This document shows positions 36,620 through 38,695 of a stretch of DNA of 64,000 bases, in pieces. The stretch's first letter is position 1. Each line of letters opens with the position of its first letter. The position numbers and the translations under genes are program-made. This DNA comes from an uncultured Gammaproteobacteria bacterium (lineage in GTDB: Bacteria; Patescibacteriota; Patescibacteriia; Magasanikbacterales; GWA2-37-8), in assembly GCA_964536725.1 (NCBI GenBank), contig CAZHYJ010000003.1, forward strand, positions 39,065 through 103,064, in the 5' to 3' direction. The notes under the pieces were generated by a model, which was not told the DNA's origin, made no database searches, and saw only the letters and a program-made list of their open reading frames with translations.

Positions 36620-38695
36620 ATGAGCAATAAATATCGTAAGGAGACAATTAAGGGTTTGACCCGTTCGCAGGTTAATTGGCGAGTGGCTGGGGTAATTGCA
36701 TTGACTGTTATAACTTTGGCAATCGTTTTGCCGGGGAAAGTAAATGCGGGAATTAGTTGGGTAAATTCAAAAACAAATATTGGTTTGCCGACCTTGCCAG
36801 CTAGCGGGTTTAATCTCGGTCTTGATTTACAGGGTGGTGCCCATCTTATTTATGCTGCCAACACGACTAATGTGCCAGCAAAAGATCGGGCTGATTCTGT
36901 CGAAGGTGTGCGTGATGTTATCGAGCGTCGGGTGCGTGGTGGCTTGGGTGTGGCTGAACCGATGGTACAGACTACTCGTGTAGGCGAGGAATATCGAGTG
37001 ATTGTGGAGTTGCCAGGTATAACTGATGTTAATCAAGCAATTAAAATGATCGGCGAAACTCCGGTTTTGGAATTTAAAGAAGAAAATACCGCACCACAAC
37101 GTGAACTAACCAAAGAAGAAAAGAAACAGCTGAGTGATTTTAATATTGCTGCTGAGAAAAAGGCTAAACTGGCTTTAACTGCAGTGCGTCAGGGAAAAGA
37201 TTTTGCCGCTGTAGTTACTGAGTTTTCTGAAGATGAAAAAACTAAAAATACCGGTGGTGATATTGGTTTTATTAATGATGTATCGTTGCCAGAGGTTTAT
37301 AAATGGGCAAGTACTCACAAAGATGGTGAGACCAGTAATGTTTTGGTAAAAGATGTTGATGGTTGGAATGTTGTTAAACGCTTAGGCCAAAGAGATGGTG
37401 AAAAATATGTTTCCGCTGCGCATTTATTGTTGTGTTACCAAGGTGCTGAACGTTGTGAGGGTGCGCAATATACTAAAGAGCAGGCTTTGGAAAAAATTAA
37501 AGAAATAAAGACTCAGATAACAGTTGTTAATTTTGGTGATATGGTGGCGCAATATTCAACTGAACCAGGTGCCAAAGATCGTGCTGGTGATTTGGGTAAA
37601 TTTAAATCTGGCGAGATGGTGCCAGAATTTGAGAGTGCAGCTTTCGGTATGGCAGTTGGCGCAATTTCTGATCCGGTTGAATCTCAGTTTGGTTATCATT
37701 TAATTTATAAAAAAGGTGAGGAAATTACCAAAGAATATCAGGTAGCGAGGGTTTTGGTTCGTACCAAAACTGAAGCGGATATTGTGCCGCCAGCGGAAGA
37801 GTGGAAATTTTCCGGTCTTTCCGGCAAACAATTAAAACGTGCCGAAGTAACAGAAGATATGCAGACTGGTCAGATTCAAGTTAGTTTAAATTTTGATGAG
37901 GTAGGTACCAAATTGTTTGCCGACATTACCACACGTAATGCTAATAAGTTAGTTGCGATATTTTTGGATGGTGAGGCGATTAGTATACCGCGTGTTGATG
38001 AGCCAATTTTAAGCGGAAGTGCTGTTATTTCCGGTGGTTTCACTTTAACCGAAGCCAAAATTTTAGCTCAACGTTTGAATTCAGGTGCGCTCCCAGTACC
38101 GGTGGAGATTATCAGTCAACAGACTGTTGGTGCTTCACTAGGTGCTGATTCTTTACAAAAAAGTTTTGTGGCCGGTCTTTGGGGCTTGCTTGCAGTGGTG
38201 ATCTTTGTGATTTTTTACTACCGTTTACCTGGTTTGATTGCTTCGGTTGCCTTACTTATATATGTTACATTAACTTTGGCAATCTTTAAATTGCTTGGTG
38301 TCACCCTAACTCTTTCGGGTATTGCGGGTTTTATCTTGTCTATTGGTATGGCAGTTGATGCTAATGTGTTGATTTTCGAACGTTTAAAGGAAGAGCTGAG
38401 ATTAGGCCGCAGTTTGAGCACAGCTTTGGAAGAGTCTTTCGTGCGTGCTTGGAGTTCTATCCGCGACAGTAATATCACCACTCTTATTAGTTGTGTCTTC
38501 TTATTATGGATGGGCACAGGTTTTGTTCAAGGCTTTGCCATTACTTTGGCTGTCGGTGTGTTGATGTCCATGTTCTCTGCTATTGTGATTACTCGTAATT
38601 TGATGCGCTGGATATTGGTGTGGTTTAAAAATGGTGCCAATCATCTTTTCTTAGGCTACAAAAAAGGCGAACAAAATATTGAAACTATAAAATAA
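36620..38695 (+). CDS. secD: protein translocase subunit SecD with tandem parvulin-type PPIase domains inserted in the periplasmic head
   Basis: TM1 and P1 head plus C-terminal 5-TM bundle typical of SecD; inserted segment with [19 protein letters not shown] and HLLL...[42 protein letters not shown], both close to PpiC (GGDLG.F..G.MVP.F....F...G......T.FGYH). Confidence 0.85.
   Translation: [691 protein letters not shown]

Follow-up and report, generated by a model that had tools for sequence, protein, structure and literature searches.

After the Sec channel and the SecDF motor, exported proteins pass to folding factors outside the cytoplasm, and it is the route of this transfer that is addressed here. 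Among the closest described systems, SurA binds the holo-translocon, and AlphaFold sets both SurA parvulins on the P1 head of SecDF (PMC9987972); PpiD touches the periplasmic domain of SecD (PMC9643414); and in Mycoplasma SecDF is found beneath PrsA-like parvulin lipoproteins (bioRxiv 10.1101/2025.04.25.650208, 10.1101/2024.09.05.611430). The evidence for a handover that comes from SurA and the holo-translocon, from PpiD and SecD, and from the Mycoplasma dome is at present low-resolution or predicted. The solved SecD/SecDF chains included in the alignments (T. thermophilus, D. radiodurans, E. coli) lack a parvulin at the site described below, in agreement with the statement, in an earlier note on this DNA, that canonical SecD carries no PPIase domain. 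In the window, by which the whole 64-kb stretch of DNA analysed is meant, a secD gene, belonging to a candidate-phyla-radiation (CPR) bacterium, encodes parvulin domains within the motor subunit itself. A full-text literature search, with most subscription journals outside its coverage, returned no description of a SecD-parvulin fusion; a preprint mentioning SecD together with rotamase was unrelated to it.

SecD and the insert in its P1 connector

The secD ORF (36620-38695; all features lie on the + strand and all coordinates are window positions) was identified by ORF translation, Pfam and NCBIfam, and encodes 691 amino acids in a single frame with zero stops; GC over the region is even, at 0.39-0.42. 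It is preceded by a promoter-like site, TTGCCA-17-TAGAAT (36559..36587), and secF (303 amino acids, 38703..39614; ORF, Pfam, TIGR00966) starts 7 nt past it, with a terminator-like hairpin 3' of secF (39820..39844); the promoter-like site and the hairpin are both matches to consensus only. The family-model scores of the SecD ORF are far above chance: 376.4 bits for TIGR01129 secD in NCBIfam (cut-off 244.4, residues 66-662) and, in Pfam, 51.4 bits for SecD_1st (cut-off 27, residues 95-156), 93.1 bits for SecDF_P1_head (cut-off 27, residues 400-493), 66.6 bits for SecD_SecF_C (cut-off 20.5, residues 495-665) and 21.4 bits for Sec_GG (cut-off 20.3). SecF reaches 296.6 bits with TIGR00966 (cut-off 160).

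The topology is that of SecD, with TM1, a large extracytoplasmic P1 composed of base and head, and five TMs, as read from DSSP of the AF2 model, whose best Foldseek matches are the SecDF structures 5XAN, 5YHF and 3AQP. TM1 (residues 15-36, 36662..36727) is an AF2 helix. The N-terminal part of the P1 base (Pfam SecD_1st, residues 95-156, 36902..37087) has 'PVLEFKEE' as its last strand and aligns with positions 33-116 of T. thermophilus SecDF; the P1 head (residues 395-493, 37802..38098) is delimited by Pfam SecDF_P1_head and by the T. thermophilus alignment, and the TM2-TM6 bundle covers residues 509-668 (38144..38623). Within the bundle, D580 (38357-38359) in 'GMAVDANV' corresponds to T. thermophilus D340, the essential TM4 Asp, and is invariant in 119 sequences, while R243 of SecF in 'TLMRS' is the counterpart of the essential T. 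thermophilus R671 ('TLSRT'). The hallmarks of SecD and SecF are demonstrably intact in the two sequences, and the ORF is predicted to function as the SecD part of SecDF, the export motor driven by protons.

Two stretches of the ORF, both falling between the P1-base and P1-head subdomains, match Pfam Rotamase with 113.4 bits (cut-off 21.7, E=1e-32). Alignments to the solved SecD/SecDF chains delimit an insert of ~238 amino acids (residues 157-394, 37088..37801) in the base-to-head connector, where it replaces ~23 amino acids of T. thermophilus SecDF (117-139); once it is removed, SecD aligns colinearly with 3AQP and 5XAN. By these alignments the insert is located after the P1-base strand 'LEFK' and before the head, outside the head itself. 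The earlier note had described a SecD whose stretch from TM1 to the C-terminal TM bundle includes two domains of parvulin fold, which Pfam and TIGR01129 bear out, and both PpiC/parvulin motifs that it quoted are present in the translated ORF. It had placed the insertion in the head; the insertion stands, the placement does not, and the Pfam search for Rotamase and SecD_SecF that it proposed finds both families, with the parvulins in the connector. Its word 'periplasmic' is here replaced by 'extracytoplasmic', as hosts of this kind are generally considered monoderm.

The module is internal to SecD and has no lipobox, TM or signal peptide of its own. The Pfam families SurA_N, SurA_N_2 and SurA_N_3, which represent the NC chaperone domain, gave no match at E<=0.01 in the 691-amino-acid protein; free PrsA-like proteins of CPR and other bacteria do match SurA_N-type families. 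Fusion of a whole PrsA or SurA to SecD was rejected, since the NC chaperone domain goes undetected by Pfam, and the 'PrsA/SurA-like foldase' of the earlier note does not hold as a whole.

The two parvulin domains and their distribution

The distal domain, parvulin 2 (residues 264-364, 37409..37711), has the canonical strand order, is PrsA-like and alone scores 73.8 bits with Rotamase. Its signature consists of H268, S313, E315, M333, F337, T/S355 and H360, which provide the beta1/beta4 His pair, the acidic residue at the Pin1-C113 position, the Ser/Thr and the Met/Phe pocket. Residue conservation was counted over 119 sequences: H268, H360, S/T313 and F337 are each kept in 119/119, E/D315 in 117/119 and M333 in 107/119. 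The closest PDB matches are the PrsA parvulin domains 6VJ6 and 6VJ4 (~1e-16), with which the model superposes at 2.2-2.4 A; over Pin1, Ess1, PrsA and Par14 the superpositions range over 1.8-2.9 A (TMt 0.78-0.84). In the beta1-alpha1 loop, Cys272 and Cys279 (37433..37456) covary strictly, with both present in 109 of the 119 sequences, neither in 10 and only one in 0, which suggests a disulfide. All the residues that characterise active PrsA/Par10-type parvulins are kept under strong constraint, and parvulin 2 is likely to be active as a PPIase. The labels 'active' and 'inactive' are to be read as predictions, because the PPIase activity of PrsA and SurA is reportedly mostly dispensable in vivo and a structural role has been argued for the His pair of Pin1.

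The body of the proximal domain, parvulin 1 (residues ~163-258, 37106..37393, ending in 'GWNVV'), starts with helices and lacks the N-terminal beta1 strand; Rotamase matches it with 49.0 bits (cut-off 21.7) over profile positions 15-95 only. The positions of the active-site His pair are occupied by Asn250 (93/119) and Arg377 (99/119), and over the 302 inserts described below the pair 250/377 is N/R in 157, S/R in 20 and H/H in 5; though the His pair is lost, parvulin 1 conserves an Asn/Arg pair of its own. The PpiD parvulin domain 2KGJ is the best single-domain PDB match (2.5e-8), SurA is likewise among the best matches, and parvulin 1 resembles PpiD and SurA-P1 and is probably non-catalytic. 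Of the two domains that the earlier note had taken alike for PPIase-type, only the second keeps the catalytic signature.

The insert set, drawn from independent assemblies, comprises 302 unique sequences that share the insertion site and align colinearly over both junctions. Two parvulin domains are present in 290 of them and one in 12; SecD-only proteins account for 207 inserts and fused SecDF for 34. GTDB species representatives with the insert number at least 51, and the lineages concerned are Magasanik-, Uhr-, Falkow-, Buchanan-, Kuenen-, Peregrini-/Peri-, Gracili- and Abawaca-bacteria. The same Pfam set recurs in 120/120 of the best homologues (62-100% identity) and in 119/120 of the best homologues of one distant member, and the insert sequences diverge to ~32% identity. 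These comparisons show that the fusion is real and kept at the same site over many CPR lineages.

Certain full-coverage contigs bear non-CPR labels: 'Lysobacteraceae' (L048), doubtful because of its 29.7% GC, and, as putative assignments, 'Binatia' (L012, 63.8% GC), 'Bipolaricaulota' (P0303) and 'Nitrospirota' (P0412). In annotation such proteins are named just 'SecD', and fragments at times 'peptidylprolyl isomerase'; the fusion exposes an annotation gap for SecD-parvulin proteins. Some CPR bacteria have a canonical SecD of 430-470 amino acids without the insert, and free parvulins are also encoded by some, including Uhrbacteria; therefore, the fusion is neither universal nor a clear replacement of PrsA. 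No further parvulin or prsA gene was found within the 64-kb window. Outside of motors, this parvulin type is also combined with a P1-head-like domain in a separate family of small proteins.

Possible roles and the nested topology

What function could a SecD with two parvulins perform? The best explanation, which we hold to be reasonably probable, is a SecD motor subunit with a two-parvulin module between the P1 base and the mobile, substrate-binding P1 head. The head would catch the unfolded chain emerging from SecYEG, swing by the proton-motive force and release the chain beside the tethered parvulin dyad, where parvulin 1 could act as a PpiD/SurA-P1-like platform for binding and parvulin 2 could isomerise prolyl bonds; the dyad might promote early folding and limit back-sliding. 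CPR cells are generally considered monoderm and without an outer membrane, and from such cells a soluble foldase would be lost rather than retained. The fusion is a probable adaptation of envelope proteostasis in CPR bacteria. By analogy, a coupling of translocation with folding is plausible, as non-covalent contacts of the SurA parvulins with the SecDF P1 head and of PpiD with SecD have been published.

It is fairly unlikely that the module just binds emerging unfolded chains, like the parvulins of SurA and PpiD, with isomerisation not being selected. Such a role would fit parvulin 1, which is conserved without the His pair and is PpiD/SurA-P1-like, as well as the dispensability in vivo that is reported for SurA and PrsA PPIase activity. 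However, the catalytic-type residues of parvulin 2 stay near-invariant in inserts as divergent as these, which is difficult to account for unless the active site is under selection; moreover, the single-parvulin variants keep an active-type body in 8/12 cases and a non-His body in 4/12.

In parvulin 1, beta1 is not N-terminal, and a candidate for it follows parvulin 2: the beta1' strand (residues 373-381, 'YQVARVLVR', 37736..37762), which would complete parvulin 1 and whose His position is occupied by R377. In the AF2 model, helix 165-190 comes directly behind the SecD base strand, and the strands 248-271 and 358-381 have complementary ends (248+381 = 271+358 = 629, DSSP). The same strands recur in a P1-only model with pLDDT 92.5 and pTM 0.70; the full-length SecD model has a pTM of just 0.57. 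The models point to a parvulin 1 that is probably circularly permuted, helices first and beta1 last, with parvulin 2 nested inside it. We infer that one continuous two-stranded beta ribbon (residues 248-271 with 358-381) joins both parvulins into a rigid dyad, the chain ends of which would leave side by side at the base/head hinge; DSSP, sequence logic and covariation are the basis for the pairing of the ribbon and for where the dyad is placed with respect to the head. The two parvulin domains of the earlier note are retained, and its simple tandem probably gives way to this nested, permuted order.

We regard it as unlikely that the domains form a plain tandem, in which parvulin 1 would be N-terminally truncated and residues 373-381 would be part of the P1 head. 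HMMER does put residues 379-399 weakly on T. thermophilus SecDF 140-160, and moving beta1' to the front of the window's own parvulin 1 yields only a marginal gain, from 37.7 to 38.6 bits. Against this stand the 24-residue strands with complementary ends in two independent models and the covariation, as His/His and Asn/Arg, that couples positions 250 and 377: His377 is present in 5/7 inserts with His250, versus a few percent otherwise. The single-domain variants argue in the same direction. A trailing 'xHILI' strand is obligatory in them: in all 8 of the active type a '(A/S/R)xHILI' strand trails the domain, and 'ARILV' is retained in L041, a variant whose body is of the inactive type. With beta1' moved to the front, Rotamase coverage extends from 7-96 to 1-96 (+6 bits), now including beta1, and that of Rotamase_3 from 31-115 to 11-115; de-permuting the single-parvulin variant brings beta1 into the profile coverage. 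If true, the nesting of one parvulin within another, circularly permuted one would add a new topology to the fold, and the full-text literature search, most subscription journals being outside its coverage, found no description of a permuted parvulin.

Alternatively, the insert could be a structural or regulatory element of the motor rather than a device for folding substrates: as a rigid lever, or as a stop, at the hinge of base and head, it would tune how the P1 head swings or serve to dock SecDF to SecYEG, YidC or the cell envelope. Its location is exactly within one base-head connector, the predicted ribbon would give a rigid dyad, and the Asn/Arg pocket of parvulin 1 is conserved and non-catalytic; nevertheless, this role is very unlikely, as it leaves the catalytic invariance and the PrsA-like substrate pocket of parvulin 2 unexplained, and the small protein family in which this parvulin type accompanies a P1-head-like domain outside motors points to a substrate-handling module. 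The preferred reading, a SecD motor with a substrate-folding dyad, also has a stronger form, which we consider decidedly unlikely. Because the dyad would be spliced into the base/head hinge by a rigid two-stranded ribbon, it could be coupled mechanically, so that the P1 head, at every swing driven by protons, would bring the captured chain to the parvulin 1 pocket and the parvulin 2 active site and then withdraw it. If true, this would be the first extracytoplasmic foldase cycle driven by the proton-motive force, and a natural 'Rosetta-stone' proof that the handover from SecDF to parvulin chaperones is direct.

There is practically no chance that an assembly or frame error joined a prsA-like gene to secD: the fusion withstands this objection, which the earlier note had raised, and an artefact was rejected on account of the one open frame, the even composition, the Pfam set shared by the best 120 homologues and the colinear architecture of 302 unique sequences of NCBI, JGI, ENA and Logan assemblies, with contigs >1 Mb among them.

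Comparison with described systems

With canonical SecD/SecDF (3AQP; 5XAN/5XAP/5YHF; E. coli 5MG3) the protein shares TM1, P1 base, P1 head and five TMs, the essential TM4 Asp, the essential Arg of SecF and the gene order secD-secF. Unlike T. thermophilus SecDF, it has ~238 extra residues with two parvulins where the latter has ~23. E. coli SecD has ~60 additional residues in the same base-head connector, and its main extra P1 segment aligns further upstream, between the GG motif and the 'VAEP' region.

The order of a divergent parvulin first and an active-type one second recalls SurA (N, inactive P1, active P2, C tail), of which positions 169-359 are colinear with SecD residues 172-363, and the fusion fixes covalently the neighbourhood of SurA parvulins and SecDF P1 head modelled in PMC9987972. 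Unlike SurA, the module is without the N/C chaperone domain and is inside SecD rather than soluble, and in place of two canonical domains its topology is probably nested and permuted. CPR hosts are not known to have a BAM pathway for a SurA-like module to feed. The likeness to PpiD (with YfgM) lies in a parvulin-like domain that is tethered to the membrane where the translocon opens outward, and the C-terminal His is missing both in parvulin 1 and in 2KGJ. However, PpiD stands alone as a protein, with a TM anchor and chaperone domains of its own, whereas the SecD insert adds an active-type second parvulin; no YfgM-like partner was found within the 64-kb window. By analogy, the fusion could be seen as, in effect, a covalent version of the contacts that SurA parvulins make with the SecDF head and PpiD with SecD in E. 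coli.

Parvulin 2 is most similar to PrsA of Firmicutes, likewise a membrane-held extracytoplasmic foldase of a cell without an outer membrane. Unlike PrsA, the module has neither lipobox nor NC dimerisation/chaperone domain, and its anchor is SecD itself. A covalent fusion beside the P1 head that is conserved over a large radiation provides independent evolutionary evidence of direct handover, and the P1 domain, at ~450 amino acids, offers a compact one-polypeptide system for studying translocation-coupled folding. Finally, the Sec 'dome' of Mycoplasma pneumoniae (Mdp436/444/489) is likewise found in a genome-reduced organism, with SecDF physically coupled to parvulin-type factors at the exit. 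On the one hand, the dome is non-covalent and multi-protein, with very large lipoproteins; on the other hand, the CPR arrangement consists of two small domains inside SecD, and the two solutions seem to have evolved independently.

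The secD reading frame and the site of the insert

Positions 36620-38695 (+) of the window form one ORF without interruption, which encodes a SecD of 691 amino acids and whose translation contains both parvulin motifs quoted in the earlier note. Pfam families of SecD and of parvulins were matched within this single ORF: Sec_GG (residues 60-77), SecD_1st, which is the N-terminal part of the base of the large extracytoplasmic domain P1 (95-156), Rotamase in two stretches (113.4 bits; cut-off 21.7), SecDF_P1_head (400-493) and SecD_SecF_C (495-665). The NCBIfam SecD equivalog-domain model TIGR01129 was also passed (376 bits vs 244), and as its match spans residues 66-662, the model reads through the insert. 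The next ORF is secF (38703-39614; TIGR00966, 297 bits vs 160), which starts 7 nt 3' of secD. A promoter-like site 5' of secD and a terminator-like hairpin 3' of secF are consensus matches only. D580 of SecD, invariant in 119 sequences, aligns with D340 of T. thermophilus, and R243 of SecF aligns with T. thermophilus R671; judged from these alignments, the essential motor residues are intact in both proteins.

The alignment with T. thermophilus SecDF (3AQP) pairs residues 64-153 with 33-116 and residues 379-663 with 140-423, and the removal of residues 158-388 in silico yields one colinear alignment with D. radiodurans SecDF 45-277. Because the first alignment breaks at this point and the second becomes colinear after the deletion, the insert is assigned to the connector that leads from the P1-base strand 'PVLEFKEE' to the first P1-head strand, and not to the head, where it had been placed before. 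In the published working model, the P1 head swings among super-F, F and I forms with the precursor in its cavity (PMC5974789).

Several neighbouring elements were recorded. The secD gene is directly flanked by cation antiporter genes (Na_H_Exchanger, Na_Ca_ex), and a few kb upstream there are a Peptidase_S49 gene of the SppA-like signal-peptide-peptidase family (30369-31250, +) and a Fic-domain gene (31792-32823, +). Directly 3' of secF lies an ORF of 474 amino acids (39874-41298, +), which has a hydrophobic N-terminal segment in translation and gave no match in the Pfam search. The window also contains a full-length LOOT RNA (Rfam RF03000; 28273-28396, +; 80.6 bits, cut-off 46.4) and an AdoCbl (B12) riboswitch (44116-44272, -; 50.2 bits, cut-off 50). 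Downstream of the riboswitch there are three minus-strand ORFs, which encode a protein of 175 amino acids (43541-44068), a Thr-rich protein of 643 amino acids with a weak squalene-hopene-cyclase-like (alpha/alpha toroid) match (41706-43637) and a DUF6580 membrane protein (41315-41833); together they may constitute a B12-regulated surface-binding and uptake module.

Distribution of the fusion

The joining of a prsA-like gene to secD by an assembly or frame artefact, named in the earlier note as what would refute the fusion, is excluded by the single ORF, the even GC content of the secD region (0.39-0.42) and the colinear homologues from many assemblies. All of the 120 best homologues (62-100% identity), drawn from NCBI, JGI, ENA and Logan assemblies and in part from contigs longer than 1 Mb, have the same Pfam set as the SecD of the window. 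When 1.84 billion cluster representatives were searched exhaustively for the insert with its junctions, 35 of the best 150 matches were SecD-flanked, with insert identity as low as ~32%. When the search was seeded with a distant member (P0217), Rotamase and SecD domains were found together in 119 of 120 proteins, many of them fused SecDF of about 1,000-1,100 amino acids; the named taxa are Gracilibacteria, Abawacabacteria, Peregrinibacteria, Magasanikbacteria, Kuenenbacteria and Buchananbacteria. GTDB species-representative genomes hold at least 51 loci with an ORF across both junctions, including Uhrbacteria, Falkowbacteria, Peribacteria and the 'Parcubacteria group'.

In total, 302 unique inserts were collected at this site (290 two-domain, 12 one-domain), of which 207 are hosted by SecD-only proteins and 34 by fused SecDF. 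Canonical Patescibacteria SecDs of 430-470 amino acids without Rotamase also exist, free parvulins are also encoded in the candidate phyla radiation (CPR), and the fusion is not universal in the radiation. The SecD of the window has the greatest resemblance to Magasanikbacteria-type sequences. Some fusion contigs (L002, L004, L012, L027, L048) and proteins (P0303, P0412) carry non-CPR labels, namely uncultured Gammaproteobacteria, Hyphomicrobiales, Lysobacteraceae, Binatia, Bipolaricaulota and Nitrospirota. The GC content of 29.7% in the 'Lysobacteraceae' contig L048 makes mis-binning or mislabelling likely; that of L012, labelled 'Binatia', is 63.8%.

Two unequal parvulins and their arrangement

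The insert contains two parvulins, as the earlier note had claimed, and both match Rotamase, but they are not equivalent. The first (Parv1, residues ~163-258) scores lower, at 49 bits, and matches best with the PpiD parvulin-like domain (2KGJ, 2.5e-8) and with SurA; it lacks the His pair, with Asn250 at the position expected for the beta4 His. Among the 302 inserts the equivalent positions are N/R in 157, S/R in 20, Y/E in 14 and H/H in only 5; as the Asn/Arg pair is itself conserved, this suggests a kept non-catalytic pocket and not decay. The second (Parv2, 264-364) matches PrsA parvulin domains best (6VJ6, 6VJ4, ~1e-16) and superposes in models on Pin1, Ess1, PrsA and Par14 (1.8-2.9 A, TMt 0.78-0.84). 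In an alignment of 119 sequences, filtered to <80% pairwise identity, H268, H360, S/T313 and F337 of Parv2 are each conserved in 119/119, E/D315, acidic and equivalent in position to Pin1 C113, in 117 and M333 in 107, which places the predicted catalytic residues under strong constraint. Cys272 and Cys279 in the beta1-alpha1 loop covary strictly (both in 109 sequences, neither in 10, one alone in 0), a pattern compatible with a disulfide in an extracytoplasmic domain. SurA-P1 and PpiD are not known to have PPIase activity, and by analogy Parv1 is predicted to be a binding module and Parv2 the enzyme of the dyad. A holdase-only role of the module would suit the missing His pair of Parv1, yet it is unlikely given the constraint on Parv2.

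After the SecD fusions, the next-best matches of Parv2 are free-standing proteins of ~300-430 amino acids with 2-3 tandem canonical parvulins (P0132, P0133, P0137, P0140, P0146 and others), apparently lipoproteins with signal-peptide-like N-termini and a Cys. The members of a rare family of ~280 amino acids (P0166, P0218, P0261, P0268, P0396-P0403, P0408; locus L081 8001-8846) have a TM anchor at the N-terminus and combine a SecD P1-head-like domain with a canonical parvulin that is very near Parv2 and shares its 'HLLxCYxGxxxC' Cys pair. In the genome of one MAG, the gene of this family adjoins serine recombinase, HTH, zinc-ribbon and trypsin-like genes, and not secD. Judged from this family, P1-head plus parvulin may be a module that recurs.

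The insertion had been described as tandem; two parvulins do lie between the SecD segments, but they are probably nested. Parv1 opens with helices (AF2 helix 165-190 straight after base strand 150-155), and a beta1-like strand 'YQVARVLVR' (373-381) comes after Parv2. Both AF2 models, full-length (pLDDT 89.1, pTM 0.57) and P1-only (92.5, 0.70), contain two unbroken 24-residue strands, 248-271 and 358-381, whose ends are exactly complementary for antiparallel pairing (248+381 = 271+358 = 629), with the His-pair positions nearly in register (250+377 = 627; 268+360 = 628). Among the natural single-parvulin variants of other CPR genomes, each of the 8 with an active-type body (ending 'GYHII') has a linker and then an '(A/S/R)xHILI' strand after it, and the inactive-type body 'GLNVL' of the variant L041 has kept 'ARILV'. 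In two-domain proteins, His377 accompanies His250 in 5/7 cases versus a few percent otherwise. Moving the trailing strand of a single-parvulin variant to the front extends Rotamase from 7-96 to 1-96 (+6 bits) and Rotamase_3 from 31-115 to 11-115 (+5 bits); for the degenerate Parv1 of the window the gain is marginal. Strand layout, AF2 strands, variants, covariation and de-permutation agree that Parv1 is probably circularly permuted, helices first and beta1 last, with canonical Parv2 nested between its beta4 and beta1; in the simplest reading, a two-stranded ribbon would join them. A plain tandem topology, which the marginal gain would allow, is improbable in view of this agreement.

The single-parvulin SecD variants at the same site (L041, L044, L048, L049, L053, L074, L075; P0194, P0232, P0290, P0294, P0296) mostly have an active-type body and then the trailing 'xHILI' strand. 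P0290, P0294 and P0296 (Tyr at position 250) are apparently of the inactive type, like L041, and P0296 gave no Rotamase match in the Pfam search.

Proposed role and comparison with known systems

The earlier note saw a PrsA/SurA-like foldase fused to SecD. The fusion of a whole PrsA or SurA is ruled out, because Pfam detected no chaperone (NC) domain of the SurA_N or PrsA type in the 691-residue protein, leaving parvulin modules only; in place of such a domain, the P1 head itself may bind the unfolded chain. No further parvulin gene was found within the 64-kb window. The SecDF motor is intact and the parvulin dyad is conserved. In the mechanism we propose, the P1 head would take up the chain emerging from SecYEG, swing with proton flow and let the chain go next to the tethered dyad, where Parv1 would hold it and Parv2 would speed up prolyl isomerisation, so that early folding would be favoured and back-sliding lessened. 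These cells are not known to have an outer membrane that could keep a soluble foldase in place. Alternatively, the module could serve the hinge as a lever, structural or regulatory; this would fit the connector site but is very improbable beside the conserved residues of the predicted active site of Parv2.

Public records name these proteins 'protein translocase subunit SecD' by machine annotation and some fragments 'peptidylprolyl isomerase'; no description of a SecD-parvulin fusion or a permuted parvulin was found in the full-text literature, as far as its incomplete coverage goes. Judged from sequence, SecD with a parvulin module, probably nested, is a real, conserved domain fusion, mechanistically suggestive and with a predicted function, and not a new type of system; it should interest the fields of Sec translocation and envelope proteostasis. 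Related pairings, all non-covalent, are on record. SurA is bound to the holo-translocon in E. coli, and in AlphaFold models both of its parvulin domains lie on the P1 head of SecDF (PMC9987972); PpiD works together with SecDF and touches the periplasmic domain of SecD (PMC9643414); the Sec translocon of Mycoplasma pneumoniae, with SecDF in it, is covered by a dome of PrsA-like parvulin lipoproteins (bioRxiv 10.1101/2025.04.25.650208, 10.1101/2024.09.05.611430). The CPR SecD is a covalent counterpart of these pairings and resembles SurA in having the same order, a divergent parvulin and then an active-type one.
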